Part shown: piece by piece, positions 16,843-33,401 of the stretch
Layout of the letters: each line of letters starts with the position of its first letter
Position numbering within the stretch: the first letter of the stretch is position 1
Source of the DNA: Minisyncoccota bacterium
GTDB taxonomy: Bacteria > Patescibacteriota > Minisyncoccia > Phycocordibacterales > UBA918
Direction: 5' to 3'
Length of the DNA stretch: 51,197 nucleotides
NCBI GenBank assembly: GCA_035324355.1
Contig: DAOLBU010000002.1
Coordinates: 1 to 51,197, forward strand
Notes under the pieces: model-generated
What the model saw: the letters and a program-made list of their open reading frames with translations, nothing else
Database searches by the model: none
Told to the model about the DNA's origin: nothing
Position numbers and translations under genes: made by a program

Positions 16843-16850
16843 CGGAAGTA

Positions 16851-17786: not shown

Positions 17787-17787
17787 A

Positions 17788-18636
17788 TTACTTATCTGAG
17801 GACGCAAATTCTTTTAGGATAATCTCTTTTTTAAGGTCATAGTTTTTTTCAATACTATCTAGTGTAATACCTTGATTTAACTCGTAAAGTTTCGTATAGG
17901 CCATAATTCTAAAAGAGGCATAATTAAGAACAATGAGAAGTCCCAAAATACCATTTTTATATGAGTATCTTCCGTATATCCATACATATCGCATAATAGC
18001 AGCAATCATTTTAATGGCACTAAATTTCAAACCCTTAGTGTGTTTTTCTTCAGCTTCAGCTTCAGCATAACGCAAATGTCCTTGGATAAATTTGTTAACA
18101 TTGTAGGTACTAAAGTGCTTTAGAGCAAAGGTTTCGGTATTTGGTAGAAATAAAATCTGGTCTTTGGTGCCGAGAAACTTTCCTAGCCCATGAATGTAGT
18201 TGTTAGAAAAATCTATATAATCTTTATGAAACAAAAATGGTGCGTAGGATTTATGGGCGTAATTAATAGTGTTACCCCAGAGGTAGGTGTAGAGAGGTAT
18301 ATTTACTTTTTTATAGACATTCTGCTCTGATAGTTCGACTATTTTTTTTACTAGTGAAAGGGGTGCGATGTTGTCAACGTATCCCCAGTAGATCCATTCG
18401 GTAGTAATGTGTGCTTTTATAAAATCAAAGTTTTCCTTGCTTTCAACATTAGCGCTAGTAATGTCTGGTCTTAAAAAAAAGCGTGCACCCATAGACTCGG
18501 CTATTTCTTGGGTTTTGTCTGTACTACCACCGTCCAGAATAATTATATCCCCGAAACCACTAAAATTTTTGAGAGGGAAGATTATTCGACGCTCTTCATT
18601 TTTGGTAAATAGGACAAAAGTAATATTAGATTTCAT
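17788..18636 (-). CDS. glycosyltransferase family 2
   Basis: ITFVLFTKNEERRI..IIILDGGSTDKTQEIA. Confidence 0.7.
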   Translation of the reverse strand: MKSNITFVLFTKNEERRIIFPLKNFSGFGDIIILDGGSTDKTQEIAESMGARFFLRPDITSANVESKENFDFIKAHITTEWIYWGYVDNIAPLSLVKKIVELSEQNVYKKVNIPLYTYLWGNTINYAHKSYAPFLFHKDYIDFSNNYIHGLGKFLGTKDQILFLPNTETFALKHFSTYNVNKFIQGHLRYAEAEAEEKHTKGLKFSAIKMIAAIMRYVWIYGRYSYKNGILGLLIVLNYASFRIMAYTKLYELNQGITLDSIEKNYDLKKEIILKEFASSDK

Positions 18637-19576
18637 GACGATTTTTTAGGGTACCCTTTCGTAAGTTTCGATACCAGGTTACTAAAAAATTTAGACCATA
18701 CCTATTAAAGAGAATCTTAATATTCTCTTTAAACGTAGCCCAATATGCATTACACATAATTCTGAATCGTAACTTTGTTATTGCAATGGGTAAAGAATAA
18801 GTATTACGGATCCAAGTAGCAATTTCCATGGTCGATCGAATACGACCGTGGATTGTTTCTAGGCCAGAAAATACACCCCAACGAATATTTGAAGCACGGG
18901 TTCTTACAATCGGCCGGGTAATTAGTAGAAATGGTGAATTTTTAAAAACCTGCAAATTTATGTACATATGTATAGCTTGCGTGCCCATATATTTTTCTTT
19001 GCCTACAAAAGCTACCCAGTCTTTTCGCCGTATGAGTTGATTAGAGAGACCGACAAAAAAGCCAACTAAATTTTCATATTCTCGATATGAGTAGATATAC
19101 TCTGATAGTTCATTATACCGTTTGTCTGGTGCGGGAGGTAAGTTTGGCTGAAGTAGTACGGGGTTATGTAAGTTTCTGTCATATCCCCAGTTATTCACCC
19201 ACGCTAAACCAACGTCAGTGTGCTTTTCTAGAGAGTTAACAACGTAAGTTAGGCTATCTTCAAACAAGGCATCATCATCACCTAAACAGAGACAGTAGGT
19301 ACTTTGACTTTGCTCCATCAATCGCACAAAACTACGATCAAAGCCTAGGTTAGTTTCGTTCTTAAAATAGTTTATGAGTCCGGGATATGCAGTAATATAT
19401 TCCGCTACAATTTTTTCTGTTTCGTCCGTACTTGCATTATCAGCAATAACTATTTCAACTATATTTTTTAGACCAGCTTTAATAATTTGAGGAGCAATAC
19501 TTTCCAAACATTGCTTCAAAAAAGGCGCTCGGTTATAGGTAGGTATACAAACGCTAAGTAAATATTTTTCAAGCAT
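18626..19576 (-). CDS. glycosyltransferase family 2
   Basis: LSVCIPTYNRAPFLKQCLESI..EIVIADNASTDETEKI..LGDDD. Confidence 0.8.
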   Translation of the reverse strand: MLEKYLLSVCIPTYNRAPFLKQCLESIAPQIIKAGLKNIVEIVIADNASTDETEKIVAEYITAYPGLINYFKNETNLGFDRSFVRLMEQSQSTYCLCLGDDDALFEDSLTYVVNSLEKHTDVGLAWVNNWGYDRNLHNPVLLQPNLPPAPDKRYNELSEYIYSYREYENLVGFFVGLSNQLIRRKDWVAFVGKEKYMGTQAIHMYINLQVFKNSPFLLITRPIVRTRASNIRWGVFSGLETIHGRIRSTMEIATWIRNTYSLPIAITKLRFRIMCNAYWATFKENIKILFNRYGLNFLVTWYRNLRKGTLKNRHEI

Positions 19577-19629
19577 GTCTTTTCAATTGTAACAAGAAAA
19601 ACATGCGAAAAGTTGTAAATATAACTATC

Positions 19630-20853
19630 TTAATTATATTTAGCCAAAAATTCGTTTATTTTACTCTCTAGATATAGTATTTGATCTTCATCAAGTCCAT
19701 GATGGCAGGCAAGAACAAATGCGTTTTTCATAATGAAGTCAGTATTTGGTAAAATGTTACTTATTTTCCTGCTTTCAATCTTTTTGAAACCTGGTTGTTT
19801 AAGAATATTACCCGTAAATACTGGGCGGGTTTGGATGTTGTTTCCTTCTAGGAAAGTGACAATTTCAAGACGAGTGAATGGAGATTTTGGTTTAATAATC
19901 ACCGGGAAGGCAAGCCAGGCAGTTTCTGTATCTGGAGTTTGGGTGGGTAAAATAAAGTACTTATCTTTGGTACTTATAAATTTTGTTAGATTTTCAAAAT
20001 TTTTCTGCCTTTTTGCTAAAAATCCAGGCAAACGCTTCATTTGTGCCAAGGCAAAGGCTGATGATACTTCTAGTGGAAGAAAATTATAGCCTATTTCACT
20101 AAAAGTAAATTTATTATCATATGGAACTCCGCCTAATTTGTAATTAAATCTATTTTTAAGTAGTTCGGAGTTTGCTTTTTCACCATAAAGAGAGGATTGT
20201 CGACCCCAGCCCCGAAGTACCTTTAGCCGATGTTCCCATTTTGAATCATTTACCATAATCATACCTCCTCCACCGGCGCCATTGATTATGTGTGATCCGT
20301 AGAAGCTGGTAATAGAAATATCAGAATAAACGCCAGTTGGCTTACCTTCAAATTTTCCACCCAGTGTGTCACATGAGTCCTCAATGAAAAAAAGCTTATG
20401 TTTTTTCGCTAGGTCAGAATACGCTCTCATATTAGGGATATTACCCATTAGTGACGGAATCATTAAAGCCTTAGTTTTCTTTGTTATGGCCTTTTTTACT
20501 TGTTCAAAATTAGGGAGGTAGGTGGTAGGATCAACATCAACAAACACGGGGATTAATCCCTTTTGGATAATAGGAGCAACAACTGTGGCAAAGGTAAGAG
20601 CGGGTGTTATTACTTCTGATCCTTTCGGGAGGTTGAGTAATTCGAATGCTAAAAGGTTGGCAGAACTACCTGAGTTAACCATTACCCCATATTTTTTCCC
20701 AAACAATTTTGCGATTTTTGCCTCAAATTCTGAAGTTTTATCTCCGATTGCCGTGTTGCCCTTGAGTACTTCGACAACTGCATCAATTTCTTCTTGTCCA
20801 TGAACCGAAAAACCGTACGGCACTCTTAGTTTTGTTTGTTTAGTTTTTGACAT
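19630..20853 (-). CDS. RfbH/DdhC (E1)-like NDP-4-keto-6-deoxyhexose 3-dehydrase of the DegT/DnrJ/EryC1 fold
   Basis: NSGSSANLLA, GLIPVFVDVDPTTY, FIEDSCDTLG, SFYGSHIINGAGGGG (His at the PLP-Lys position), YDNKFTFSEIGYNF and TRPVFTGNILKQPGF. Confidence 0.8.
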   Translation of the reverse strand: MSKTKQTKLRVPYGFSVHGQEEIDAVVEVLKGNTAIGDKTSEFEAKIAKLFGKKYGVMVNSGSSANLLAFELLNLPKGSEVITPALTFATVVAPIIQKGLIPVFVDVDPTTYLPNFEQVKKAITKKTKALMIPSLMGNIPNMRAYSDLAKKHKLFFIEDSCDTLGGKFEGKPTGVYSDISITSFYGSHIINGAGGGGMIMVNDSKWEHRLKVLRGWGRQSSLYGEKANSELLKNRFNYKLGGVPYDNKFTFSEIGYNFLPLEVSSAFALAQMKRLPGFLAKRQKNFENLTKFISTKDKYFILPTQTPDTETAWLAFPVIIKPKSPFTRLEIVTFLEGNNIQTRPVFTGNILKQPGFKKIESRKISNILPNTDFIMKNAFVLACHHGLDEDQILYLESKINEFLAKYN

Positions 20854-21129
20854 GGAATTTTAGAATTCTAATATAAAAGTATTTTGCAGCTTTTCCAAAG
20901 TTTATCAGAAATTTACATATTTACTAGTTCATAGAGAATACCATGTCCGCTCTGCGGTGTGGTTGAGTAAACAATAAATATTTAATGGCGGAGCCATTTC
21001 TTAGCTATAAAAAACACGCTGTTTTCGTCCGCTGAATATCCTGTCGACTTGTCACAGGTAGGCTGGACGGATGTTTTTTCTAAAAACTAACAAATTAGTC
21101 ATAATTGTATTTAAAATAAGTTTGTGAGC

Positions 21130-21795
21130 TTATAAATCAACACCTGCTAACCCTAATTTCTCATAGTCCCTTTCAATTGATTCAATGTATTTTTTTATTT
21201 TTTTACTATAAACAGATCCCAATACTTTTGCCTTTTTTATTCGTAATTGTGGTATGTATTGGGAAATAATAAGTCTCAAGTTATCTAATACGGTTTTTGG
21301 GTTTTCATAGGTAGATAGGGGGTTTTTATCTCCGTTGAGGTATTTTAAATCAAGGGCCGGTATTTTATGCCTAAATTGTCCACCACGAATAATAACGGCT
21401 GACTGCATGTTTGCTAGTCTGTCTGCATCCATCAGTACCACTTGAGTATCGTTTTGGTTATCTTGGTTTAGTTCAGAGTGTCGTAAAGCTGCTTCAATAA
21501 TGTCCTTTATTTCAGTATCGTTAAAAAAGTGCTTCAGATTTTGAGAATACAAAATCATTGTCTCTTTAACTTTCTTTTCTGTAACAACCCTGTCTGTCGA
21601 ATGCAGAAGTGAGGCGCACCAAGCTTTGTGTCCAAGACGGACAGAAGGTGCTATTAAGACAGCCAACATGGCAACAGTAACATCGTGATCAAAGCCATGT
21701 CCAAAGTGATCTTTGTTTTTGGTCTGAATATGACCGTTTTTGATTTGGTTGTAAAAAACCGGAAATAGGTTACGAAAAGTATCTAGAGAGTTCAA
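21130..21795 (-). CDS. hypothetical protein, possible HD-superfamily phosphohydrolase
   Basis: H..HGFDHD followed by downstream His/Asp residues. The assignment is tentative. Confidence 0.4.
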   Translation of the reverse strand: MNSLDTFRNLFPVFYNQIKNGHIQTKNKDHFGHGFDHDVTVAMLAVLIAPSVRLGHKAWCASLLHSTDRVVTEKKVKETMILYSQNLKHFFNDTEIKDIIEAALRHSELNQDNQNDTQVVLMDADRLANMQSAVIIRGGQFRHKIPALDLKYLNGDKNPLSTYENPKTVLDNLRLIISQYIPQLRIKKAKVLGSVYSKKIKKYIESIERDYEKLGLAGVDL

Positions 21796-21946
21796 GGTAA
21801 TAACAATTTATAAGATAGATTATGTTATATATCTTTTAATTTCGCAAATTTAATCCTTGGCCAGTATTAAGTAAGTATTCTTTATATTGGTTATCTCAGG
21901 ATATAAAGCAGGAGATATATAAAACCCCTTATGGTTACAACACACT

Positions 21947-21975
21947 TTGACTGAACGTTTTTTTTTAGTTATTCT
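21947..21975 (+). promoter_or_regulatory. sigma70-like promoter candidate (TTGACT-17-TATTCT)
   Basis: Lies in the divergent gap between the HD-like gene (-) and the C-methyltransferase operon (+). Confidence 0.3.
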
Positions 21976-22010
21976 TCATATGAATATTATCTTAATAACT
22001 AAATTTAAAT

Positions 22011-23294
22011 ATGGATTTGAATTACCCCCCACATCACCTCATAAAAAATGGTCACATCAGTACTTGTCAGGTGTGTAATTCAAGTAAACTTCATACTATT
22101 TTAGATTTGGGTCACCAGCCTCTTTGCGATACATTGCTAACAGAAGCAATGCTAAATGAACCTGAGATAAATTACCCATTACGTATGATTTGGTGCGAAG
22201 ATTGCACTAACTCGCAGATTGATCATTGTGTTGACGGTAGTGAAGTTTATCATCCCAATTATCCTTATAAGAGTGGCGTCACAAAGGAACTTGTTGAATA
22301 TCAAGTAAAAATTGCTGAGTCATTAATAAAAAAATATAATCTACAACCAAATGATTTAGTTGTGGACGTTGGTTCAAATGACGGGACGCTGCTGAGTGGA
22401 TTTAAAGATACGGGCATTAGAGCTCTCGGAGTGGAGCCAACTAACGTTGCAAAAATTGCTAATGAAAATGGAATTGAGACTGTCCAGTCATTTTTCGATA
22501 TAAAAACGTCTGAGGCGATCAAGTTAAGTCATGGACAAGCATCGGTTATTGTCACAACCAATACTTTTGCTCATATGCAAACGCTAGGGGAGGTTATCAT
22601 GGGTGCTTATAATCTACTTAAAGATGACGGCGTTTTTGTTACAGAAACCCACTACTTACTTAATGTTATTGAAGGCGGTCAGTTTGATACCGTTTATCAT
22701 GAACACTTAAGAACGTATTCTCTAAAAGCTTTGGTCACGCTTTTTAATCAATATGATTTTACGGTTACAGATGTAGAGCGTGGCGATAGATATGGTGGCA
22801 ATATTAGGGTGCATGTGACTAAAGGAAAAGGACGAGTAGTTTCTCCTGCGGTCGCAAAATTACTGGAACTTGAAGAAGCTTCTGGTTTAAATAAATTAGA
22901 GACATACACAAAGTTTGCTAAAAGAGTTCAAGCCGCCCGGCTAAAGTTTGTTGACTTTCTTGTTTCTTCAAAGCAGGCAGGTAAGAAAGTTGTCGGTAAC
23001 TCGTGTCCAGGAAGATGTGTGACCCTGCTTAATTACTATGGTGTAGACTCAGAATTGTTACCCTATTTGGCCGAGCAGCCAGCTTCTTTGAAGCTCGGTA
23101 TGTATCTACCCGGAAAGCATATTCCAGTTGTAAATAATCAAATTCTTATTGATGAACAGCCGGATTATGTAGTGCTCCTTGCGTGGCATTACGCTAAGCC
23201 TATAATGGAACAATTAAAAGCACGTGGGTTAAAGTCGGATTTCGTACTGCCTCTTCCTGACTTCGAAATTGTTAAAAATGAGGATGTTAATTAA
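22011..23294 (+). CDS. NDP-hexose C-methyltransferase (TylCIII-like; Zn-ribbon + class I MT + C-methyltransferase C-terminal domain)
   Basis: N-terminal CQVCNSSKL..LGHQPLCDTL zinc ribbon, SAM motif VVDVGSNDGTLL, and HEHLRTYS with a long C-terminal domain. Confidence 0.8.
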   Translation: MDLNYPPHHLIKNGHISTCQVCNSSKLHTILDLGHQPLCDTLLTEAMLNEPEINYPLRMIWCEDCTNSQIDHCVDGSEVYHPNYPYKSGVTKELVEYQVKIAESLIKKYNLQPNDLVVDVGSNDGTLLSGFKDTGIRALGVEPTNVAKIANENGIETVQSFFDIKTSEAIKLSHGQASVIVTTNTFAHMQTLGEVIMGAYNLLKDDGVFVTETHYLLNVIEGGQFDTVYHEHLRTYSLKALVTLFNQYDFTVTDVERGDRYGGNIRVHVTKGKGRVVSPAVAKLLELEEASGLNKLETYTKFAKRVQAARLKFVDFLVSSKQAGKKVVGNSCPGRCVTLLNYYGVDSELLPYLAEQPASLKLGMYLPGKHIPVVNNQILIDEQPDYVVLLAWHYAKPIMEQLKARGLKSDFVLPLPDFEIVKNEDVN

Positions 23295-24314
23295 ATGAGG
23301 ATAGGAATTATTGGTTCAGGCTTTGGTCTTTACGGTTTATTTCCCGCATTTAATTCTGTAGATGGTTGCAAGGTGGTTTCAGTGTGTGGAAAGAAAACAG
23401 ACAGATTACTCAGTTATTGTGCAAGTGTAGGGCCAGTCAGTATATATACTGACTGGCAAGAGATGCTTAAAAAAGAAGAGTTAGACGCTGTTGCTATAGC
23501 GGTTGTACCGAGTGCTCAGTTTGTTATAGCTAAGCAGGCTCTTGCTCAAGGACTCCATGTTTTTGCTGAAAAACCCCTCGCTTCTTCTTATGAAGAAGCG
23601 TCTGAACTTTGTGATTTGGCTTTTAAATACAAACGTATTACGGCGGTCGATTTTATTTTTCCAGAAATTGATGAATGGCAGATGGTTAAACAAATACTTG
23701 AACAAAAAATGTATGGTAATTTAAAAAGTATTTCTGTTGCCTGGGATTTTTTAAGTTATGATATTAAAAACAAGATAGTATCTTGGAAAACTAATGTAAA
23801 AGAAGGCGGTGGGGCACTTTCTTTTTATTTTTCCCATGTACTATACTATCTTGAGTATTTTGGCGGGAAAATAAAAACAATCGGGGGCAGTTTGCATTAT
23901 TTTCCTCAGGAAAGTTTGGGTGGTGGAGATGTCGGGGTAGATGTCGACATGATTTTTGGTAATGGAGTGATTGGTAAGGCGCATCTTTCTTGCAATTCTC
24001 ATGATAATCACCAACATGTAGTTACTTTCGAGTGTGACAATGGATCTCTCACTCTTAAGAGTATGAAAGGCGTTACGGAAAACTTTACCGTCACAGTTTC
24101 TTCTCATGGGAAAGATCAAATTATTCCTATTCGAAAGCTGGGAAAGCGAAATATTGAAGAGGATGAGCGGGTAAGAGTAGTGTCAAAAATTGCTGCCAGG
24201 TTTGTGAAAGCTTGTAATGAAAATACTAAGATGACTCCTTCTTTTGATGATGGTCTACGAGTCGAAGAGTTAATTGATATAGTTCGAAGTAACGCCTCAG
24301 TATATGTCGCTTAA
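23295..24314 (+). CDS. Gfo/Idh/MocA-family oxidoreductase
   Basis: MRIGIIGSGFG Rossmann start and the EKPLA motif. The ATG directly abuts the upstream TAA. Confidence 0.8.
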   Translation: MRIGIIGSGFGLYGLFPAFNSVDGCKVVSVCGKKTDRLLSYCASVGPVSIYTDWQEMLKKEELDAVAIAVVPSAQFVIAKQALAQGLHVFAEKPLASSYEEASELCDLAFKYKRITAVDFIFPEIDEWQMVKQILEQKMYGNLKSISVAWDFLSYDIKNKIVSWKTNVKEGGGALSFYFSHVLYYLEYFGGKIKTIGGSLHYFPQESLGGGDVGVDVDMIFGNGVIGKAHLSCNSHDNHQHVVTFECDNGSLTLKSMKGVTENFTVTVSSHGKDQIIPIRKLGKRNIEEDERVRVVSKIAARFVKACNENTKMTPSFDDGLRVEELIDIVRSNASVYVA

Positions 24315-24341
24315 TTAACAAAAAAAAGACTTAGCCTCTCT

Positions 24342-24761
24342 TTGGAAAAAACTGATGATACTGAAATAAGAGGAGAGATTTGGCATCAACTAGTTAAGAA
24401 GTTCATTACTGTAGCTACAGAACTTTGTATTTTAGACAATAAAAATAGAGTCCTTTTAATCTATAGAAAAGACCGAGAATTTGATGGTTATCATCTACCT
24501 GGCTCTGTTGTTAATAATTGGGAAACTGGCAAGGGGGCACTGTCTCGATTAATTTTTCAAGAAGTCACAGTGGGCGTGGGTAGTGATATGACAGAACCAG
24601 AGCCGCTTGGATGGCTTGGCTCATCTAAGGATGCTGGTCCTGCTGAGCCGTCCTCTCGTCATGGAGTTTTGCTTCTACATGTTGCACGTTTTTCCGACGC
24701 CTTTCTTCCAAGAGAGGTAGTGGCATTTTACGATTTAATAATCTTCCACAAAACCCACTAG
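24342..24761 (+). CDS. Nudix-fold protein with a degenerate Nudix box
   Basis: LILDNKNRVLLIYRK..GYHLPGSVV..E..ALSRLIFQEVTVG. The track start is TTG, so the start is uncertain. Confidence 0.45.
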   Translation: MEKTDDTEIRGEIWHQLVKKFITVATELCILDNKNRVLLIYRKDREFDGYHLPGSVVNNWETGKGALSRLIFQEVTVGVGSDMTEPEPLGWLGSSKDAGPAEPSSRHGVLLLHVARFSDAFLPREVVAFYDLIIFHKTH

Positions 24762-24788
24762 TATGTCATCAGTACATACTACTTTTTT
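24760..24788 (+). terminator. rho-independent terminator candidate
   Basis: AGTATGT / ACATACT 7-bp stem with a 7-nt loop, then ACTTTTTT. Confidence 0.55.
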
Positions 24789-25012
24789 AAGAAATATATT
24801 GAAAAAAGATTAATTTTAGGAAAATAAGGCCTTTTTAAAAGCCCCAGTGTCTTCAGAAGCCGTATTTTGATGAATAATGTAGACTATAAAATTTTTATAC
24901 TCAGATATTAAGAATTCAAAGTAGTGGTTTAAAGAAATAACTAATTTAAGGCTTGTTTACATATACTAACCATATATGTATACTTTTGACTAATGAGGAG
25001 GTTATATATCTT

Positions 25013-26083
25013 ATGAATCATTTTTACTCGGGCAAAAAGGTCCTTATTACTGGACATACGGGTTTTAAAGGCGCATGGCTCACCCAAGTACTTTTGGGCT
25101 GGGGAGCGGAAGTTGTAGGGGTATCTTTGGCTCCATCAACGACACCAAATCTTTTTACTCTTTTAGGTCACCAGCACCAGATTACAAATTATTATTGTGA
25201 TATTAGAGATACAGCCGATGTGCTTAAGATTATAGACAGTAATAAACCAGAGATATTATTTCATTTGGCAGCTCAGCCGCTTGTGCGCCGTAGTTATGAA
25301 GACCCACTTTTAACCATTTCCACCAATGCCACAGGCACGGCCAGTGTACTTGATGCAATCAAGCAAGCAGGAACAGTAAAATCTGTTGTGGTTATTACCA
25401 CTGATAAAGTATATAAGGATCAAGATTGGGTTTATCCATACCGTGAAATAGATATGCTGGGAGGTTATGATCCATATAGTGCAAGTAAAGCAGCCGCTGA
25501 CATTATCACTCAGTCTTATATACAATCGTTTTTTAATCCGAAAGACTACGGAGTCACTCACAATACTCTTGTGGCTATTGCGCGAGCTGGGAACGTTATT
25601 GGGGGTGGAGATTGGGCTAAGGATAGACTTATTCCTGATATCATGCGCGCAGTATACGAAAAGAATATTCCCGTTTTGCTTCGGTATCCGAAAGCGATTA
25701 GACCCTGGGAGCACGTTTTAGAATCTCTTTCCGGCTACCTTATGTTGGCGCAGAGGATTTATCTAGGACAAAAGAATCTCGTGGGTGCCTGGAACTTTGG
25801 GCCATTATCTGAGAGTTTTGTTAGTGTAGAGTCGGTTACAAAGACTATATTGTCAAACCTGAGGCGTGGATCTGTCATTATTGACCCTAATCCTAACGCT
25901 CACGAAACCAATTTGTTAAGATTGGATATCTCTAAAGTCAGTACTCAACTTGGTTGGAGTCCAACTTTAAATTATAAAGAGACTATAGACTATACAGCGT
26001 CATGGTATAAAGAGTATTATGAAAACCGTGACGTTTCTGTAATTACCAAAGAGCAAATTAACACTTTTTTCAAAAACATATGA
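25013..26083 (+). CDS. rfbG: CDP-glucose 4,6-dehydratase
   Basis: KKVLITGHTGFKGAWL, VVITTDKVY and YSASKAA (SDR catalytic motif), PWEHVLE. GAGGAG Shine-Dalgarno sequence at 24995-25000. ATG 25013 is preferred over 24953. Confidence 0.88.
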   Translation: MNHFYSGKKVLITGHTGFKGAWLTQVLLGWGAEVVGVSLAPSTTPNLFTLLGHQHQITNYYCDIRDTADVLKIIDSNKPEILFHLAAQPLVRRSYEDPLLTISTNATGTASVLDAIKQAGTVKSVVVITTDKVYKDQDWVYPYREIDMLGGYDPYSASKAAADIITQSYIQSFFNPKDYGVTHNTLVAIARAGNVIGGGDWAKDRLIPDIMRAVYEKNIPVLLRYPKAIRPWEHVLESLSGYLMLAQRIYLGQKNLVGAWNFGPLSESFVSVESVTKTILSNLRRGSVIIDPNPNAHETNLLRLDISKVSTQLGWSPTLNYKETIDYTASWYKEYYENRDVSVITKEQINTFFKNI

Positions 26084-26850
26084 AAGTAGTCATCTTGGCA
26101 GGAGGATATGGTACTCGTATCAGCGAAGAAACTCATGCACGTCCTAAGCCGATGGTGGAGATTGGCGGTAAACCAATTTTGTGGCATCTAATGAAAATTT
26201 ATTCTCACTACGGTTTTAATGAGTTCATTATTTGTCTTGGTTATAAAGGTTACTATATTAAGGAATGGTTTAATAACTATTACTTGCATACGAATGATGC
26301 CACTTTAGACCTTGAACATAACACTACTACCTTCCATAATAACCTAAGCGAAAAATGGAAAGTAACTTTAGTGGATACTGGAGAGCATACAATGACAGGC
26401 GGGAGAGTAAAAAGAGTGCAAAAATTTGTGGGAAATGAAACTTTCATGCTCACTTATGGAGACGGACTTTCTGATGTCAATATTACTGAGCTGGTGGCTA
26501 CTCATAAAGCCCATAAAAAGCTAGCAACAGTCACAGCGGTAATTCCAGAAGGGAAGTTCGGTGTTTTAGCAATAGATGATAAATCTTCGGTAACATCTTT
26601 TAGTGAAAAAACTGACAATAAAAGCCGTATTAACGGTGGTTTTTTTGTGCTTGAACCAGAAGTTTTTTCGTATCTTAATGACGACGGAACTATTTTTGAG
26701 AAAGCACCACTTGAAGCGTTGGCAACCGATGGTCAGCTTAAAGCTTTTAATCATGATGGATTTTGGAAACCGATGGATACACTAAACGACAAGAATAAAT
26801 TGGAGACACTTTGGACTACCGATAGCGCTCCATGGAAGCTGTGGTCGTAA
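26080..26850 (+). CDS. rfbF: glucose-1-phosphate cytidylyltransferase
   Basis: MKVVILAGGYGTRISEET..PKPMVEIGGKPILWHLMKIYS and FWKPMDTLNDK. ATGA overlap with rfbG. Confidence 0.9.
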   Translation: MKVVILAGGYGTRISEETHARPKPMVEIGGKPILWHLMKIYSHYGFNEFIICLGYKGYYIKEWFNNYYLHTNDATLDLEHNTTTFHNNLSEKWKVTLVDTGEHTMTGGRVKRVQKFVGNETFMLTYGDGLSDVNITELVATHKAHKKLATVTAVIPEGKFGVLAIDDKSSVTSFSEKTDNKSRINGGFFVLEPEVFSYLNDDGTIFEKAPLEALATDGQLKAFNHDGFWKPMDTLNDKNKLETLWTTDSAPWKLWS

Positions 26851-26853
26851 TTT

Positions 26854-28602
26854 ATGCAAAAGACATCGCAAGAAAAAATTTATGCGGATGAGATTGTAGA
26901 TTTCTTAGTGAGCCATAAAATTACTAAAGTTTTTGATTTGACTGGGGGAATGATTGCTTTTATCGAAGATGCTATTGGTCGACATCAAGAAATAGAATGT
27001 ATACCAATGCACCATGAACAAGCTGCTGGATTCGCTGCCGAAGGCTATGCGCGTACAAGTGGTAAATTTGGTGTAGCTATGGCAACTAGCGGTCCTGGGG
27101 CCACTAATCTTATTACAGCTATTGGTAGTTGTTTTTTTGATTCAGTACCAGCTTTGTTTATAACCGGGCAAGTTCACTCCAAAAATTTGAAAAAGAAGGC
27201 AGAGGTAAGACAAGAAGGTTTTCAAGAAACAGATATTGTTTCGATGGTAAAACATATCACTAAGTTTGCTGTTCAAGTCGCTAGTCCAGAAGAGATTGTC
27301 CCAAATTTAGTAAAAGCTTACTCAATAATGAAAGAAGGTAGACCAGGACCAGTACTTATTGATATACCGATAAACTTTCAACGCACTAAAGTAAGTAACA
27401 AAAAAATTAGCCTAAATAAAATAGCTAAAAATAATAACCGTATAGATAATAAAAAGAAAATAAAGGAACTTGAAGATTTGTTAGAAAAATCAACCGCACC
27501 ACTATTGTTAGTAGGGCATGGAGTTCGTATTGCACAAGCTGAGGAGTTATTAGCAAAATTCCAAAAAAATAATAACCTTCCAGTCGTTTCATCTCTAATG
27601 GGACTTGATGTGTTTCCTCATAATAAAAATTTTGTTGGTTATATTGGGACTAATGGTAATCGTGATGCAAATATTATATTTGCTAACGCTGATTTAATTA
27701 TTGTACTAGGTTCCCGGCTTGATCTAAGACAAACCGGAGATCCGGATCTTTTTAACAAGAGTGCAAAAATCGTTCATGTTGATATAGATGAATATTCTAT
27801 TAACTACGGTATTAAATCGACCCTATTTTTTGTTTCTGATTTAAAGGATTTTCTTTTAGATGTAGAACATCTCAAGACCTCGAGTAAAGCTGTGTGGGTA
27901 AAATTCATCTCAAAAATTAAAAAACATTTCTCCAGAGTAGAGTTGCCAGGGAAGAGTGTTAACCCAAATTTATTTTTTAATGAACTTTCGTCAATCGCCC
28001 ATAAGAATACAGTTGCCGTGATTGATGTGGGTCAAAACCAACAATGGTGTGCTCAGTCCTGGAAAGTACAAAAAGGACAACGTTTATTATTTTCGGGGGG
28101 TATGGGAGCTATGGGTTTTTCATTACCTGCGGCCATAGGAGCTTGGTATACTGACATGACTACTCCAGTTGTGGTAATTACTGGCGATGGTGGTTTACAG
28201 ATAAATATCCAAGAACTTGAGACTGTTTCTCGAAATAAAATTCCGCTTAAAATTTTTGTTTTTAACAACAAATCACTAGGAATGGTCCGTGAATTTCAGG
28301 ATTTATATTTAAATAAGAATACTTACACAACCGTAGGTGGGTATGGTAATCCTGACTTTAAAAAGTTGTCTAGTGCATACAATATTTCATACAGTTTGAT
28401 TTCCAAAAATGTCGGGACACAAAGACTAAATGAGATACTTAATTCAAGTGTCGCTGAGTTTGTAGAAGTTTTAGTTGATGCAGAGGCGCCTCTCCATCCC
28501 AGAACTGTTTATGGACATGCATTAGACGACCAAGCTCCATACCTTAGTGTAGAACAAAAAGAGCTACTAGAGTCTTTAAAAGCTGAGTTACATACCCGAT
28601 GA
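26854..28602 (+). CDS. thiamine-diphosphate-dependent, acetolactate-synthase-large-subunit-like enzyme (YerE-like candidate)
   Basis: 582 aa in a three-domain ALS-like layout. N-terminal HEQAAGFAAEGYAR..SGPGATN. ThDP motif GDGGLQINIQEL..(24 aa)..NN. Confidence 0.85.
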   Translation: MQKTSQEKIYADEIVDFLVSHKITKVFDLTGGMIAFIEDAIGRHQEIECIPMHHEQAAGFAAEGYARTSGKFGVAMATSGPGATNLITAIGSCFFDSVPALFITGQVHSKNLKKKAEVRQEGFQETDIVSMVKHITKFAVQVASPEEIVPNLVKAYSIMKEGRPGPVLIDIPINFQRTKVSNKKISLNKIAKNNNRIDNKKKIKELEDLLEKSTAPLLLVGHGVRIAQAEELLAKFQKNNNLPVVSSLMGLDVFPHNKNFVGYIGTNGNRDANIIFANADLIIVLGSRLDLRQTGDPDLFNKSAKIVHVDIDEYSINYGIKSTLFFVSDLKDFLLDVEHLKTSSKAVWVKFISKIKKHFSRVELPGKSVNPNLFFNELSSIAHKNTVAVIDVGQNQQWCAQSWKVQKGQRLLFSGGMGAMGFSLPAAIGAWYTDMTTPVVVITGDGGLQINIQELETVSRNKIPLKIFVFNNKSLGMVREFQDLYLNKNTYTTVGGYGNPDFKKLSSAYNISYSLISKNVGTQRLNEILNSSVAEFVEVLVDAEAPLHPRTVYGHALDDQAPYLSVEQKELLESLKAELHTR

Positions 28603-29528
28603 GAAAAATAAAAAGGATTTCTTTATTAGGAGCGAGTGGGTATATAGGAAGATCATTAGTACCACTCTTCCTGGAACAGCAGACAAAGTATGAGCTACAC
28701 CTCTTTTCCCGTACTCCTGATGTATTGTCAAAAAAGCTTGTAACATTGTATGGCTCTAATTTTCAATCTCAAATTCACCATTTTAAAGATTTTCTTCAAG
28801 TAGATTGTGATGTGGTATTGAATGCTACTGGAATTAGTGATTCTCGTGAAATAGCAAAAAATCCAAGGTATGTTTTGGAGACGACAGCATTAATTGATGA
28901 TGTCATTATTTCCAAACTTAAGAAGAAATCCGAAATTACTTACATTAACTTTAGTAGTGGTGCAGTGCATGAAAGCCGTTCAGATAAAGTAACTCGTGAA
29001 GAGAAAACGGATCGAAATTTAGTAAATAATATGTTAAGCCGTGAATATTACATCATGGCTAAACAGCAGGCAGAAGCTAAGCATAGAACATTAATTGATT
29101 TGTCTATAGTTGATGTGAGAGTGTTCGCATTTTTTAGTCGTTTTGTCGACATAAGAAATACGTTTCTTATGTCTCAAATTGCCAGTAGTCTAAAAGAAAA
29201 AAAAGTTTTTCTTACTAATAGTACTGATATTATCAGAGATTATATTACACCTGATGATTTGTTTCGTTTTATCGAGTGTGTTATTTCCTCACCTAGTAAT
29301 TGTGCTTATGACGTTTATAGTTTGGAACCAGTATCAAAATTTTTATTGTTAACGCATTTGAATAAAAACTTTGGTTTACAATATGAGATATCTGATGTTG
29401 ATTTAAGCACAACCTTAGCGAAAGAAATCTATTTTTCAACTAATTACGCAGCTAAAAATATCGGATATCGTCCTACGCACACCTCTTTGTCAGGTATATG
29501 CAAAGAACTGGACAAGTTTTTAGAATAA
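28599..29528 (+). CDS. NAD(P)-dependent epimerase/dehydratase-family (SDR) protein, probable sugar ketoreductase
   Basis: ISLLGASGYIGRSL Rossmann motif and YxxxK-like YIMAK. ATGA overlap with the ThDP enzyme gene. Confidence 0.65.
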   Translation: MRKIKRISLLGASGYIGRSLVPLFLEQQTKYELHLFSRTPDVLSKKLVTLYGSNFQSQIHHFKDFLQVDCDVVLNATGISDSREIAKNPRYVLETTALIDDVIISKLKKKSEITYINFSSGAVHESRSDKVTREEKTDRNLVNNMLSREYYIMAKQQAEAKHRTLIDLSIVDVRVFAFFSRFVDIRNTFLMSQIASSLKEKKVFLTNSTDIIRDYITPDDLFRFIECVISSPSNCAYDVYSLEPVSKFLLLTHLNKNFGLQYEISDVDLSTTLAKEIYFSTNYAAKNIGYRPTHTSLSGICKELDKFLE

Positions 29529-29550
29529 AAGTGTAGTGCGAGATGTTAAA

Positions 29551-30414
29551 TTATATTCCTTTAAAAATGTGAACAATTCTTCTAAGTGAAATTAATAACA
29601 AGACGACAAGGCGGTTAAAATAAACAATAAAGTTTCGTTTTGAATGTAGTTTTAAAGGGGACATAAAAGGAGGTCTTTTCCAGTTCAGGCGAATGTGCCA
29701 TATTCGCTGTTCTGGCGTATTTAAAAGATTGCCGTGATATATCTTTAAAGACCGAATATGGATATTGTTCCAATATTTTCGAAAAAAAATGTTTACCAAT
29801 GTTAAGTCGTGACGAAACAGACGACAGTCTCTGATAAAAATATTTTTATCCTTTCCCTTATTTCGCCAGCTGTCATTTATTGAAAATCCAAGAGCTAATC
29901 CAGTTAATGCTGCGGCGTAAATTTTATAAAATATTTTGTTTACTTCAGGGGAGTCTAAAAATCCAATAATGCCAGCATGTATAACAGTTTTATTATCATG
30001 GTCATCAGAAAGGCTAAAAATCTCTTTGTAACTTTTAGGAACGATATCGCTGAATAATTGTTCCTGGTCAACTAGGAGGACTTTTTCTTCTTCAATAATT
30101 TTAAAATCTTTGTCTAACGGTTGTAAGACTTGACAGCCAGCATCTAAGTATAAATTTAAGTCTGCGAGTGGATGGGCAAAAATATAAGTTTTCCAAGTGT
30201 AACAACTGCGCCAGTGTGGACAAAATTTGGGCATGGAAATAACAGTTACACCTTCAATTTTTTTAAGTTCTTGGCGGAAAGTATAAAATAATCCTAGGTC
30301 ATAAACATAAATTGGGGGATGCTCCGGATAATTTACTTTAATTGAAGTCAATAAATTAATTATTGACGGAAAAAATTTGTTAGAGCAGGAAGTAATCAGA
30401 GCTTTAGTTTTCAT
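29551..30414 (-). CDS. hypothetical protein, possible GT-A-like nucleotide-diphospho-sugar transferase
   Basis: The only hints are the context and a YLDAG (DxD-like) segment. ATGA overlap with wzx. Confidence 0.35.
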   Translation of the reverse strand: MKTKALITSCSNKFFPSIINLLTSIKVNYPEHPPIYVYDLGLFYTFRQELKKIEGVTVISMPKFCPHWRSCYTWKTYIFAHPLADLNLYLDAGCQVLQPLDKDFKIIEEEKVLLVDQEQLFSDIVPKSYKEIFSLSDDHDNKTVIHAGIIGFLDSPEVNKIFYKIYAAALTGLALGFSINDSWRNKGKDKNIFIRDCRLFRHDLTLVNIFFRKYWNNIHIRSLKIYHGNLLNTPEQRIWHIRLNWKRPPFMSPLKLHSKRNFIVYFNRLVVLLLISLRRIVHIFKGI

Positions 30415-31706
30415 GTATTTTTAACATTATAACGCAATAATTTGCCTAAAAGATACAAACATCCTACAAAAAATAATACTACGCAACTAGAAATTAATGT
30501 GGCAATTGCTGCGCCGTATGCCTGGTATTTAGGTATAAGTAAAAAGTTGCCAACTACATTGAAGATGACACCTGCTAAAGACATCAAAAATAGATACATT
30601 CTTGCATTTTCGGTCAGTAAGTAATGTTGAACTACAATACCTAATGAAATCGGGATCAAGGCCCAAACATATATTTGTAATACTGGAATTGTTAAAATAA
30701 ATCCATTTCCAAAAACTAATTTTACAATTGGTCCAGCCAATATTGATACCGTAAGCGCAATTAAGCCTGAAAGTAGGCCGAGTAAAGCAAAAAGAGCTAA
30801 AATTCTTTTTCGGTATAAAGAATGACCTGTTTTTTTTGCATTAATAATTGCCGGAAAGAGTGTACCAACAATAATACTAGGAATAAAATACCAAAGTTCA
30901 GTAAGTCGAACTGCTGCGTCGTAAATACCAACTTCAGTGGCGTTAATTAAATTTTTCAGCATTACTTGATCTATGCGTGCATATACTACTGCGAAAGCGC
31001 TGGTAAGGATAAATGGCCAAGAATCGAGCAAAAGTCTTTTTGCTACTGTTGTGTCAAATTGCCACTGCCTAAGTGAGCCAAAAGTCCTATGTCTGATGTA
31101 AATATATCCAATAGCATACAATAAAGTTTCAATAACTATTATGATAGCTAGATATAACACGCCCTTATCAAAAAATATGGAACTTACTTTTAATAAATTC
31201 ACTACTACTGTTACAAAGAATGATAAAAATGAGACCGGTTTATTATTTACTACAGCCCCAAATTCATATGAAATAATTCCAAATATATGTAAAACATATG
31301 TGGCCGATAGAATTGAAATTATCAAGAAGGATACATCAGGAGGCGAAAAAACCCACGCTACACCAATAGTAAGTAGCGAGGTAAAAAATGATGCAACGAA
31401 TTTAATACCCAGAGCAGTACCCAAAAGCTTATTTTTTTGTTCTGGATATTTAATAATTTCTCGATAAAGAACAGAATCAATCCCAAGAGAGGCAATAAAT
31501 GAAAATAGCGCGATAAAACTAAGTCCGTAACTTAACTCACCATAATTTGTTGGTCCTAAGGTGCGAGCAATATATAGAGTGGCAATAAAATTGACAAACA
31601 TATTACTAAACTTGCCCAAAAAAACCCAACCTGTATTTTGAGCATAGCGAAGTAGACCCTCCTTGCTGGTACCGTTAGTAATGAAAAATTTTCGCCAATA
31701 ATTCAC
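30411..31706 (-). CDS. wzx: Wzx-type (MOP superfamily) polysaccharide flippase
   Basis: 431 aa with about 12 hydrophobic helices and an N-terminal pattern typical of polysaccharide biosynthesis proteins (..FLGKFSNMFVNFIATLYIARTLGPTNYGELS). Confidence 0.8.
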   Translation of the reverse strand: MNYWRKFFITNGTSKEGLLRYAQNTGWVFLGKFSNMFVNFIATLYIARTLGPTNYGELSYGLSFIALFSFIASLGIDSVLYREIIKYPEQKNKLLGTALGIKFVASFFTSLLTIGVAWVFSPPDVSFLIISILSATYVLHIFGIISYEFGAVVNNKPVSFLSFFVTVVVNLLKVSSIFFDKGVLYLAIIIVIETLLYAIGYIYIRHRTFGSLRQWQFDTTVAKRLLLDSWPFILTSAFAVVYARIDQVMLKNLINATEVGIYDAAVRLTELWYFIPSIIVGTLFPAIINAKKTGHSLYRKRILALFALLGLLSGLIALTVSILAGPIVKLVFGNGFILTIPVLQIYVWALIPISLGIVVQHYLLTENARMYLFLMSLAGVIFNVVGNFLLIPKYQAYGAAIATLISSCVVLFFVGCLYLLGKLLRYNVKNT

Positions 31707-31708
31707 GG

Positions 31709-32368
31709 TTATTTTTGGAAGACAGTGATTGAGTCTTGAGTTTCTATATATTTAAGTCTTGAATCTTTTTTCAGCTCTCGAATTAATTGAACACATCCAG
31801 GCCAGCCATCAAAAATAACTTTACCATCTACTGAAATCGGAGCTGAATCATGAAAAGCTACATATCCATTTTTTGAGAGTAGGGGAAACCATTCTTCAAA
31901 GTCTTGCTGAACTGCCTTATATGTATGATCTCCATCTATAAAAATAAAGTCAAAAGGCGCTGTCCAGTTTCCAGATACATTGAAACTAAAATCCTTTACA
32001 AAGTTAAAGTTAGGATAAAATTCTAGATTCTTTCTAATCTTTTCTTCCGTCCCCATAAGCTTTTTGTTCATGCTGTCTGGTATTAGTGGGTCTATACCAT
32101 AGATGGGTACATTGGCTACTAAAGCTAATTCCTTAGTAGTCTTGCCATCGAGTATACCAATTTCCACAATCCCAACTTTGGCGTGACGCGCATACTTTTG
32201 AAGTAGGTCTTTTTCAATTTCAGTAGTCCATCGTGAGCCTTCTGGCCCAGTATCAATTTTTGATACTAGGGCTGTTTTGAACATGTTTTTTAATATAGCA
32301 ATCAGCTGAATGGGGTCAGTGAAAAGTAGTTTTAATTTAAATTTGGTTTTTAAAATAAAATTTGACAT
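31709..32368 (-). CDS. class I SAM-dependent methyltransferase (Methyltransf_24-like)
   Basis: VGIVEIGILDGKTT and FIFIDGDHTYKAVQQDFEEW. Confidence 0.7.
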   Translation of the reverse strand: MSNFILKTKFKLKLLFTDPIQLIAILKNMFKTALVSKIDTGPEGSRWTTEIEKDLLQKYARHAKVGIVEIGILDGKTTKELALVANVPIYGIDPLIPDSMNKKLMGTEEKIRKNLEFYPNFNFVKDFSFNVSGNWTAPFDFIFIDGDHTYKAVQQDFEEWFPLLSKNGYVAFHDSAPISVDGKVIFDGWPGCVQLIRELKKDSRLKYIETQDSITVFQK

Positions 32369-33399: not shown

Positions 33400-33401
33400 A
33401 A

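Follow-up and report, generated by a model that had tools for sequence, protein, structure and literature searches.

The region 19630-29528 of the window (the whole stretch of 51,197 nucleotides analysed) is best explained as the portion of a large chromosomal surface-glycan locus that makes sugar nucleotides. On balance, we lean towards two separable modules that would supply two sugars, one yersiniose-like (branch A) and one C-methylated (branch B), the former by way of a ColD-type step of an E1-like protein. The locus would be a variation on the known YerE/YerF type of pathway with an added methyl-branching module and an Fe-S-free deoxygenase. The sequence-only reading had placed two different C-branching modules here, and both were confirmed: a sugar C-methyltransferase (C-MT) with a Gfo/Idh/MocA oxidoreductase (Gfo), and YerE/YerF-like genes.

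Both modules would draw on CDP-4-keto-6-deoxy-D-glucose from RfbF and RfbG. In branch A, the E1-clade PMP enzyme would take off the 3-OH, with ColD-like hydrolysis of the sugar-ene intermediate and regeneration of PMP from an amino donor; the YerE-like enzyme would decarboxylate a 2-oxoacid (pyruvate is assumed) and add the resulting acyl anion to the ketone at C-4, and the translationally coupled YerF-like SDR would reduce the branch carbonyl, giving a CDP-yersiniose-like 4-C-(1-hydroxyethyl)-3,6-dideoxyhexose. In branch B, the TylCIII/MtmC-type C-MT would methylate a ring carbon adjoining the 4-ketone and its obligate Gfo partner would reduce the ketone, yielding a second, C-methyl-branched 6-deoxyhexose. 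The glycosyltransferase block, the flippase and a Wzy_C-TPR protein would use both sugars and also the fucose or colitose supplied by the neighbouring gmd, fcl and ColD-like genes.

All eight previously described open reading frames were recovered in place and with the same domains. Four of them, rfbG-rfbF-ThDP-SDR, are joined by a 3-nt spacer between rfbF and the ThDP gene and by ATGA overlaps at 26080 (rfbG/rfbF) and 28599 (ThDP gene/SDR), both of which had been noticed before and are present in the sequence; further upstream, C-MT ends directly before the start codon of Gfo (TAAATG). The source of the window is a Candidatus Paceibacterota (CPR/Patescibacteria) MAG with a tiny genome.

Features of the sugar-nucleotide region and neighbouring glycan genes, with positions in the window.
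Feature	Position	Strand	Size and domains
Glycosyltransferase block GT10 - GT-D - GT2 (weak) - GT2	15793..19576	-	Pfam
DegT/RfbH-like, E1/RfbH-clade PMP-type sugar 3-dehydratase homologue	19630..20853	-	407 aa
Sugar C-methyltransferase (C-MT), TylCIII/MtmC/TcaB9 type, SAM-dependent	22011..23294	+	427 aa; Pfam Methyltransf_13/23/14
Gfo/Idh/MocA NAD(P) oxidoreductase	23295..24314	+	339 aa; Pfam GFO_IDH_MocA + C-terminal domains
Nudix-like ORF	24342..24761, homology to 24824	+	Pfam NUDIX, weak
Promoter-like site before rfbG	24956..24984	+	TTTACA-17-TATACT
CDP-glucose 4,6-dehydratase rfbG/ddhB	25013..26083 (ORF open from 24953)	+	356 aa; TIGR02622
Glucose-1-phosphate cytidylyltransferase rfbF/ddhA	26080..26850	+	256 aa; TIGR02623
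YerE-like three-domain ThDP enzyme	26854..28602	+	582 aa; Pfam TPP_enzyme_N/M/C
YerF-like extended SDR	28599..29528	+	309 aa; Pfam Epimerase
Wzx-type polysaccharide flippase	30411..31706	-	Pfam Polysacc_synt / Polysacc_synt_3
ColD-like dehydratase	33402-34580		392 aa; beside gmd/fcl

The assignment of rfbF and rfbG as bona fide CDP-glucose enzymes held, as both products score above equivalog cut-offs (RfbG 440.3 bits against 278 for TIGR02622, RfbF 405.7 bits against 300 for TIGR02623). These curated models show RfbF as the predicted source of CDP-glucose and RfbG as the predicted enzyme converting it to CDP-4-keto-6-deoxy-D-glucose. The start of rfbG is most likely ATG 25013 rather than TTG 24953, because a GAGGAGG Shine-Dalgarno sequence lies 5' of this ATG, a promoter-like site occupies 24956-24984 and the counterpart in locus L002 is called at 356 aa. 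The site itself is a weak promoter candidate, with a 10/12 consensus match in a scan that as a whole was not enriched over shuffles.

The C-MT matched the PDB entries of MtmC (4rv9, 255 bits, over the full length), a “Sugar 3-C-methyl transferase” (5t64, 215 bits) and TcaB9 (193 bits). It shares with the C-3 methyltransferases TylCIII, MtmC, KijD1 and TcaB9 the three-domain architecture and the N-terminal Cys4 zinc module, visible in its translation as a CxxC...CxxC motif, but differs from them in its presumed CDP-sugar rather than dTDP-sugar context and in its constant pairing with Gfo, which directly follows C-MT in 8/8 contexts inspected (window, L004, L087-L092). It is 75-87% identical to its 120 closest homologues, and those with an organism name are all from Patescibacteria. 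The PDB matches of Gfo are weak and include the sugar 3-ketoreductase 3rbv (E 2.5e-7); from gene content only, we infer that it is the ketoreductase finishing the C-methyl sugar, since L090, where C-MT/Gfo is accompanied by just an NTP-transferase and a 4,6-dehydratase, holds a complete pathway and Gfo would therefore have to fill this role. The Nudix-like gene is apparently truncated by an in-frame stop and degenerate: it reaches 19.1 bits with Pfam NUDIX (E 0.0014; cut-off 21.1), tblastn with the 177-aa L004 orthologue gave 51% identity across the stop and in frame to 24824, and its Nudix box reads RLIFQE (RLIREE in the orthologue).

The C-MT/Gfo pair is probably a separable module making a second sugar. 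Alternatively, both modules could work on the same CDP-4-ketosugar, with C-MT methylating C-3 or C-5 before the YerE-like enzyme acylates C-4 and with Gfo and the YerF-like SDR performing the remaining redox steps, so that one sugar would carry methyl and hydroxyethyl branches. C-methyltransferases and YerE-type enzymes, judged from family knowledge and PDB homologues, both need a 4-keto substrate, the C-MT module lies on one strand directly 5' of rfbG-rfbF-ThDP-SDR in every window-type locus (window, L004, L087, L088, L091), and the unusual conservation of both C-MT and the E1-like protein (75-88% identity) fits a joint function. We nevertheless regard a doubly branched sugar as rather unlikely, as the modules also occur apart: YerE/YerF-like genes without C-MT/Gfo in L003, L005 and L011, and C-MT/Gfo without a ThDP enzyme or DegT in L090 and, with the same two accompanying genes, L092. 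Furthermore, the pathway of L090 is already closed, so Gfo would remove the very ketone that YerE would need, and a 250-nt gap with a likely separate promoter precedes rfbG in the window.

In the two-sugar reading, the 407-aa protein would be an unusual deoxygenase. The proposed RfbH-like removal of the 3-OH needed correcting. The protein is of the E1 clade, with E1 as its best PDB match (3bcx, 256 bits; ColD 184 bits), and retains Cys193 and the catalytic His220, the latter invariant in 120/120 closest homologues (70-88% identical, every organism-named one from Patescibacteria). It is not a canonical E1, as its NCBIfam RfbH score (357 bits) is under the cut-off of 423 and three of the four cysteines of the [2Fe-2S] site of E1 are lost in it and in 120/120 closest homologues (C251S, C253G, C261L/I/M). 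Neither the window nor the CPR loci contain an E3 reductase gene. Because both the [2Fe-2S] site and E3 are missing, the protein, if it removes the 3-OH, would plausibly have to act in the reductant-free manner of ColD, whose mechanism is distinguished from that of E1 (PMC8987622). As in ColD and E1, the PLP lysine is replaced by His; the protein resembles ColD in having neither an Fe-S site nor a dedicated reductase, and E1 in its CDP-sugar context and nearer sequence, while the ColD orthologue of the locus is the 392-aa protein. Judged from its sequence, it is a member of an uncharacterised subfamily, neither E1 nor ColD, and it could have another activity or a GDP-sugar substrate. To our knowledge, no Fe-S-free E1-clade enzyme has been characterised. 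Its gene heads the minus-strand glycosyltransferase operon and adjoins the CDP cassette in L003, L004, L087, L088 and L091, whereas a canonical E1 fills the matching slot in L005, L007, L008, L010 and L011.

Were this E1 homologue inactive or otherwise employed, the YerE-like enzyme would branch CDP-4-keto-6-deoxyglucose directly, to a 3-hydroxy 6-deoxy 4-C-branched hexose. The absence of three cluster ligands and of E3 and the low RfbH score would agree with this, as would L006 and L009, which have rfbF/rfbG and the ThDP enzyme and no DegT in the examined stretch (just 7.4 kb in L009). However, the invariance of His220 and the strong conservation of the family make such a product improbable, and ColD is itself a His-type, Fe-S-free and competent 3-dehydratase (PMC8987622). 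Moreover, E1-type and YerE-like genes stand together in L003, L004, L005, L007, L008, L010, L011, L087 and L088.

The ThDP enzyme was proposed to be YerE-like and not IlvB/ALS, and model scores, a neighbour-joining tree and an indel agree on this. The 582-aa protein is under every ALS model cut-off (TIGR00118, 444.5 against 538.35 bits), and its best PDB match is 5ahk (382.6 bits; best ALS 286.8 bits). The phylogeny that had been suggested for it placed it outside ALS, apart from 75 ALS sequences and in one YerE-type clade with 5AHK and a Yersinia yerE-position protein (each 100/100 bootstraps); a 6-residue insertion occurs in 19/19 members of the clade and in 0/75 ALS sequences. We take 5AHK to be PpYerE, reportedly described by Hampel et al. 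in 2018; it is 68% identical to the ThDP protein of Yersinia vastinensis, whose gene sits in a ddhD-ddhA-ddhB-ddhC-ThDP-SDR cluster (L011). At 36-37%, the protein is scarcely more identical to the YerE group than to ALS (mean 34%, maximum 37%), and its placement in the clade therefore depends on the tree, the indel and synteny. The GDG-X24-NN motif was found at residues 444-472, along with the HHEQ catalytic Glu. The protein is predicted to be a YerE-like carboligase adding a 2-oxoacid acyl branch to C-4 of a CDP-4-ketosugar. It shares the three-domain decarboxylase-superfamily fold, both motifs, the 5AHK clade, the deoxysugar context and a downstream reductase gene with the reviewed YerE-like lyases YpYerE, PpYerE, ErwE, JanthE and MMAR_2332 (PMC12247030), but forms a deep separate CPR sub-clade at ~37% identity. 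Characterised YerE-like enzymes accept C2-C8 donors (PMC12247030); pyruvate is taken as the default donor because the window has no donor-making genes, such as the aldolase/dehydrogenase genes that flank ErwE (PMC9306805). A conventional acetolactate/acetohydroxyacid synthase of branched-chain amino acid biosynthesis, or another pyruvate-using ThDP enzyme, would fit the ALS models as best NCBIfam matches, the label “acetolactate synthase large subunit” given to homologues by their sources and the equal identity to both groups, but is very improbable, and acetolactate synthase was rejected, given the missed cut-offs, the tree and the indel, the tight spacing to rfbF and overlap with the SDR start, and a four-gene order common to L003, L004 and L087, with a Yersinia variant (rfbF before rfbG, E1 before the ThDP gene). 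No ilvN, ilvC or ilvD was found within the window.

The YerF-like role given to the SDR was borne out by its homology to the 310-aa gene that follows the ThDP gene in the canonical ddhDABC-yerEF-type cluster of Yersinia L011 (33% identity over the full length, E 6e-51). It carries the motifs GASGYIG (GxxGxxG) and YIMAK (YxxxK) and is predicted to reduce the branch carbonyl; homologues of 36-42% identity follow a ThDP gene or a split transketolase in L003, L004, L087, L088 and L091. The yersiniose A pathway of Yersinia pseudotuberculosis comprises DdhA/B/C/D, YerE and YerF, and the comparator used here is the syntenic Y. vastinensis cluster. Both loci encode activation as CDP-glucose and 4,6-dehydration, a PMP enzyme of the E1 family that has the catalytic His, a ThDP enzyme of the YerE clade and, immediately 3' and overlapping the stop of the ThDP gene, a homologous SDR (identities: rfbF 58%, rfbG 46%, ThDP 37%, SDR 33%). 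Unlike Yersinia, the window has no E3/DdhD, the order is rfbG-rfbF instead of ddhA-ddhB, the host is a Patescibacteria member without LPS and the C-MT/Gfo module is added. The window E1 homologue is only 36% identical to that of Yersinia; Cys251/253/261 are missing from it, as are the N-terminal extension and an 8-residue loop, and its gene is on the opposite strand.

The combination had been thought unusual for this kind of organism, which did not hold, because the same block, an E1-like gene diverging from C-MT-Gfo-Nudix-rfbG-rfbF-ThDP-SDR, recurs in other Patescibacteria contigs; the suggested search of other genomes found the set in many related ones. Judged by a shared length of the longest contig, at least 17 ThDP homologues pair with an E1-like homologue and 14 with a C-MT homologue, and no window-type locus has one module without the other. 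A split transketolase pair takes the YerE-like slot in L089 and L091, two syntenic CPR loci, and is followed in L091 by a homologue of the window SDR; this swap would mark the slot as a “ThDP brancher + reductase” position. Sugar branching enzymes of the transketolase and alpha-ketoacid-dehydrogenase types are known from antibiotic pathways (PMC12247030) and are absent from the window.

The glycosyltransferase block downstream of the E1-like gene likely uses the sugars made at the locus. All four of its genes recur in matching order in L087, L088 and L091 (44-66% identity), and the flippase is kept beside the E1-like gene in these three loci and in L003 and L004. A second, ColD-like dehydratase, absent from the sequence-only reading, lies beside gmd/fcl and belongs to a GDP route.

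The open reading frames named in the sequence-only reading were all present at the coordinates it had assigned to them, and both the ATGA overlaps it claimed at 26080 and 28599 and the GDG-X24-NN motif of the 582-aa ThDP enzyme (residues 444-472) were confirmed in the sequence. The spacer between rfbF and the ThDP gene measures 3 nt, and the sugar C-methyltransferase (C-MT) and Gfo/Idh/MocA (Gfo) genes meet at a TAAATG junction. Assignment of rfbF and rfbG as CDP-glucose enzymes was borne out, both passing the curated equivalog cut-offs. The rfbG gene is present, but its start had to be revised: the longest ORF begins at TTG 24953, and the true start is probably ATG 25013, given the GAGGAGG Shine-Dalgarno sequence ahead of this codon, a promoter-like site at 24956-24984 (from a promoter and terminator scan with no enrichment over shuffles) and the call of rfbG as a 356-aa protein in an independent assembly. 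The Nudix-like ORF appears truncated, since an in-frame stop lies at 24762 and similarity to a 177-aa orthologue runs on beyond it. Its Nudix box (GX5EX7REUXEEXGU) is degenerate, reading RLIFQE with one catalytic Glu replaced, and the gene may be decaying, shortened or affected by an assembly error.

Coordinates of the features described in the window and in the comparison loci.
Sequence	Feature	Coordinates	Strand	Domain or model match
Window	Coupling ATPase and Lamin-tail + PKD protein	3296-6860	+	
Window	GT10 (FucT-like)-GT-D-GT2-GT2 block	15793-19576	-	
Window	E1-like DegT protein, 407 aa	19630-20853	-	
Window	Sugar C-methyltransferase	22011-23294	+	PF08421 Zn-binding N-domain, PF13489 SAM domain, PF08484 C-terminal sugar-binding domain
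Window	Gfo/Idh/MocA protein	23295-24314	+	Pfam domain
Window	Nudix-like ORF	24342-24824 by homology	+	Pfam NUDIX 19.1 bits vs 21.1
Window	CDP-glucose 4,6-dehydratase (rfbG)	ATG 25013 (probable start) to overlap at 26080	+	TIGR02622 440.3 bits, cut-off 278.45
Window	Glucose-1-phosphate cytidylyltransferase (rfbF)	26080-26850	+	TIGR02623 405.7 bits, cut-off 300.25
Window	ThDP enzyme, 582 aa	26854-28602	+	
Window	SDR, 309 aa	28599-29528	+	
Window	Wzx flippase	30411-31706	-	
Window	gmd, fcl/ColC-like and 392-aa DegT trio	33402-36611	-	gmd TIGR01472 559 bits; fcl-like NF047922 500.5 bits, cut-off 500
Window	392-aa DegT protein of the trio	33402-34580	-	
L011	SDR, 310 aa	11704-12636		
L088	Extra genes between rfbF and SDR	14860-19439		
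L089	C-methyltransferase-SDR fusion	178-2487		
L089	Split transketolase pair	6041-8650		
L090	Four-gene C-MT/Gfo set	10001-14062		
L091	Split transketolase pair	13203-15828		
L092	Four-gene C-MT/Gfo set	8282-12285		

The 582-aa protein carries the three ThDP-enzyme domains (Pfam TPP_enzyme_N/M/C), and H54 and the catalytic Glu, E55, are invariant in the alignment of ThDP enzymes. Its best NCBIfam matches are acetolactate synthase (ALS) models, all of them below cut-off (TIGR00118, 444.5 vs 538.35 bits; the other ALS models far under theirs). The closest solved structure is 5AHK (382.6 bits; 286.8 bits for the best ALS, E. coli ALS I), which we take to be PpYerE of Pseudomonas protegens (Hampel et al. 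2018). This structure shares 68% identity with the protein at the yerE position of Yersinia vastinensis (L011), whose cluster encodes an E3-type reductase, a cytidylyltransferase, a CDP-glucose dehydratase, RfbH (744.5 bits), a ThDP enzyme and an SDR, the published architecture of the yersiniose cluster (PMC9306805, PMC12247030). A neighbour-joining tree was built from 96 sequences, namely the window protein and 8 of its metagenomic homologues, 5AHK, 84 genome loci and 2 contigs of Patescibacteria, or CPR. In it a single clade, separate from about 75 ALS, brought the window protein and its CPR homologues together with 5AHK, the Yersinia protein and four further genome loci, and the split was recovered in 100 of 100 bootstraps (neighbour joining, with 38 ALS sampled from the 75 in the full tree). 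The tree was made by neighbour joining only and is without YpYerE, ErwE, JanthE and MMAR_2332, because the genome-scan matches listed did not include them; among those matches there was one Yersinia locus and no YerE-like locus of Pseudomonas protegens, Pectobacterium or Mycobacterium. All 19 clade members, but none of the 75 ALS, carry an insertion of 6 residues behind the TGQV motif (..K....RQ.GFQE). Raw identity of the 582-aa protein to the YerE group (36-37%) is similar to that to ALS (mean 34%, maximum 37%), so that the YerE-like assignment rests on the tree, the insertion and the gene context. The gene sits with CDP-hexose genes and is followed by a YerF-type reductase, with a like layout in Yersinia and in the CPR loci, and among the window's ORFs we found no ALS small regulatory subunit and no ilv pathway neighbours. 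An ordinary biosynthetic ALS (IlvB/G/I), the family to which the best models belong, is ruled out by the HMM cut-offs, the bootstrapped tree, the insertion and the gene context, and the YerE-like identity proposed from sequence, against which a grouping with IlvB/ALS would have told, stood up in the tree, the insertion, the 5AHK score and the synteny.

The downstream 309-aa protein is an extended SDR with GASGYIG (GxxGxxG) at residue 11 and YIMAK (YxxxK) at residue 151, and it matches the Yersinia SDR over its full length (33% identity, E 6e-51), the gene of which likewise follows and overlaps a ThDP gene. No solved or curated relative of the window SDR was found in the PDB or NCBIfam. The proposed succession of ThDP enzyme and SDR, after the logic of YerE/YerF, is matched by homology to the Yersinia gene downstream of the yerE position. 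The 582-aa protein is predicted to carboligate an acyl anion derived from a 2-oxoacid to the ketone of CDP-4-keto-3,6-dideoxyglucose, and we consider YerE/YerF-type branching of a CDP-sugar at this locus to be likely, with good confidence.

The 407-aa DegT-family protein, read from sequence as RfbH-like, belongs to the E1 clade and has the catalytic His, but it is not a canonical E1 (DdhC/RfbH 3-dehydrase). Its closest solved relative is E1 (256 bits), followed by ColD (184 bits), and the PLP-Lys position is occupied by His, 'SFYGSH' being aligned with 'SFYPAH220' of E1. It keeps His220 of E1/RfbH/DdhC but lacks the four-Cys motif, an E3 (DdhD/AscD) partner reductase and an RfbH cut-off score: it scores 357.3 bits with the RfbH model NF011936 (cut-off 423; Yersinia DdhC 744.5), and of the [2Fe-2S] set Cys193/251/253/261, complete in six of six canonical sequences (E1 and five homologues), it has Cys193 only. 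All of its 120 closest homologues (70-88% identity; those with a named organism all from Patescibacteria) have H220, C251S, C253G and L, I or M for C261, and a tblastn search with the Yersinia E3 found no E3, either in the loci compared from CPR or in the window, where the best hit had E 3.6. For E1 and SpnQ both cluster and reductase are required, and the His-type dehydratases without a cluster (ColD) finish by hydrolysis, with PMP regenerated from glutamate (PMC8987622). The window protein resembles ColD in its His-type active site, without Fe-S cluster or reductase, but differs from it in being nearer E1 in sequence and in adjoining the CDP cassette and not GDP-mannose genes. With the His kept, the Cys ligands lost, no E3 found and the ColD mechanism as described, our best reading is that of an E1-clade enzyme which would act in the ColD way on a CDP sugar.

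A role of the 407-aa protein in the GDP-mannose (colitose) route was also considered. Such a route, of GDP-colitose type or leading to both fucose and colitose, is predicted for the gmd, fcl/ColC-like and 392-aa DegT genes of the window, which have 'fucosyl'transferases of GT10/GT11 nearby. The best solved relative of the 392-aa protein is ColD/WbdK and it too has His at the Lys position, so that the locus has two different His-type 3-dehydratases, and the 407-aa type adjoins the CDP cassette at five further loci (L003, L004, L087, L088 and L091, all CPR contigs). The separate ColD-like gene and this linkage make a GDP-route role of the 407-aa protein unlikely, and they support its link to the CDP route. 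The gmd, fcl/ColC-like and ColD-like trio also occurs in L088.

The C-MT is, judged by its domain make-up, a TylCIII/TcaB9-type NDP-hexose C-methyltransferase (and may, like that type, methylate C-3 of an NDP-4-ketohexose), with full-length PDB matches to MtmC, the sugar 3-C-methyltransferase 5t64 and TcaB9, and its gene was adjacent to Gfo in eight of eight contexts inspected. PDB matches of the Gfo protein were too weak for assignment of a reaction. The presence of two different C-branching modules in one locus, YerE-like ThDP/SDR and C-MT/Gfo, was thus corroborated, and a single doubly branched sugar might be made by the C-MT and the YerE-like enzyme together. At two loci, L090 and L092, C-MT and Gfo make up a self-contained group of four genes whose other two members encode an NTP-transferase and a 4,6-dehydratase; the latter two proteins have only 31-46% identity to those of window rfbF and rfbG, and no DegT or ThDP enzyme was found within 10 kb. 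The L090 pathway would close only with Gfo reducing the 4-ketone left after methylation. By this logic Gfo would consume the ketone that a YerE-type enzyme needs, so we prefer two products from one precursor to the doubly branched sugar. The full mechanism, with 3-deoxygenation and a YerE/YerF-type acyl branch on one side and C-MT with Gfo on the other, is one towards which we lean only slightly. In the CPR contig L089 a single 769-aa protein joins a sugar C-methyltransferase to an SDR (epimerase/reductase) domain, and its gene lies beside a dTDP-sugar isomerase-like gene.

The combination had been expected to be unusual for this kind of organism, which the recurrence across Patescibacteria loci does not bear out. 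When the same gene set was sought in other genomes, the window layout (E1-like gene divergent from C-MT-Gfo-(Nudix)-rfbG-rfbF-ThDP-SDR) was recovered in L004, L087 and also L088, the ThDP enzyme of which has diverged further (31% identity); L003 has the E1-like gene and rfbG-rfbF-ThDP-SDR but no C-MT/Gfo. Moreover, in an indirect census that paired proteins by identical length of their longest contig, at least 17 of the ThDP homologues had an E1-like partner and 14 a C-MT partner. The YerE/YerF and C-MT/Gfo modules are separable. A split transketolase pair, Transketolase_N (~270 aa) and Transket_pyr/C (~305 aa), stands in place of the YerE-like gene in L089 and L091, two Patescibacteria loci that are otherwise syntenic with the window, and is followed in L091 by an SDR with 37% identity to the window YerF-like protein; L091 also has the Wzy_C-TPR and secA genes that neighbour the window cassette. 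Apart from YerE-like enzymes, the known ThDP sugar branchers are of transketolase type (PMC12247030). The swap is an apparent non-orthologous replacement of the branching enzyme, and a transketolase pair and SDR in the same place support the reading of this slot as ThDP brancher plus branch reductase. In L088 a second NTP-transferase-like gene and genes for a 254-aa protein, the 31%-identical ThDP enzyme, a DJ-1/PfpI protein and a HAD protein lie between rfbF and the YerF-like SDR, an arrangement which may reflect a different branch chemistry. Furthermore, L087, L088 and L091 share with the window, in order and sequence (42-66% identity), the GT10-GT-D-GT2-GT2 block and the Wzx flippase, which together have the appearance of a glycan assembly unit common to the lineage.

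Overall, the pathway reading stands largely for YerE/YerF and the two branching modules, needs correction for the dehydratase assignment and falls for the rarity; at the window locus, all beyond gene identity is prediction. YerE/YerF chemistry is known to contribute to LPS in a few Gram-negative bacteria and to glycolipids in mycobacteria, and to our knowledge the surface chemistry of the ultra-small, host-dependent CPR bacteria is essentially undescribed. A wider proposal, to which we give somewhat less than even credence, is a conserved, lineage-wide Patescibacteria cassette in which an E1-clade PMP enzyme free of Fe-S and E3 would carry out ColD-style CDP-sugar 3-deoxygenation, and a swappable ThDP brancher (YerE-like or split transketolase)/YerF-like slot with C-MT/Gfo would yield a family of CPR-specific branched deoxysugars on the surface of these episymbionts. 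If true, the Fe-S-free E1-clade enzyme would add a fourth type, in mechanism or in evolution, to the nucleotide-sugar 3-dehydratases, and it offers a directly testable case of how reductase-dependent (E1) and hydrolytic (ColD) C-3 deoxygenation relate. The cassette suggests that CPR bacteria devote resources to elaborate branched deoxysugars, which might help them to attach to host cells or to recognise them. Both the YerE-like clade of CPR and the exchange of YerE for transketolase enlarge the pool of ketone-accepting ThDP enzymes that are sought after in biocatalysis. The pathway type is known, since YerE-like lyases are a recognised subclass of which an in silico survey lists more than 200 by gene-cluster similarity (PMC12247030). 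What appears new is the host lineage, the Fe-S-free E1 subfamily without E3, the fixed C-MT/Gfo association and the YerE/transketolase interchange. We found no literature linking Patescibacteria to CDP-sugar, dideoxyhexose or C-methyltransferase pathways, which, with incomplete coverage, is a weak sign of novelty.

The window as a whole is a large glycan locus set between the housekeeping genes murB, secA, obg and gatB, with glycosyltransferases of GT2, GT4, GT10, GT11 and GT-D, methyltransferases, a Wzx-type flippase, a Wzy_C-TPR protein, galE, gmd and fcl. It corresponds to a metagenome contig in ENA (NODE_282, 51,197 bp), and proteins identical to its ThDP enzyme, DegT protein and methyltransferase are listed at NCBI under a Candidatus Paceibacterota MAG. 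When the full window was scanned against Rfam at gathering thresholds, 0 matches were returned. Over the glycan locus (15000-35000) G+C is 33-39%, versus 40-46% in the housekeeping flanks, as is usual for surface-polysaccharide loci that are exchanged horizontally. Immediately before the glycan genes, on their upstream side, lies a gene for a TrwB/TraG-like coupling ATPase (713 aa), followed by one for a Lamin-tail and PKD protein (477 aa).
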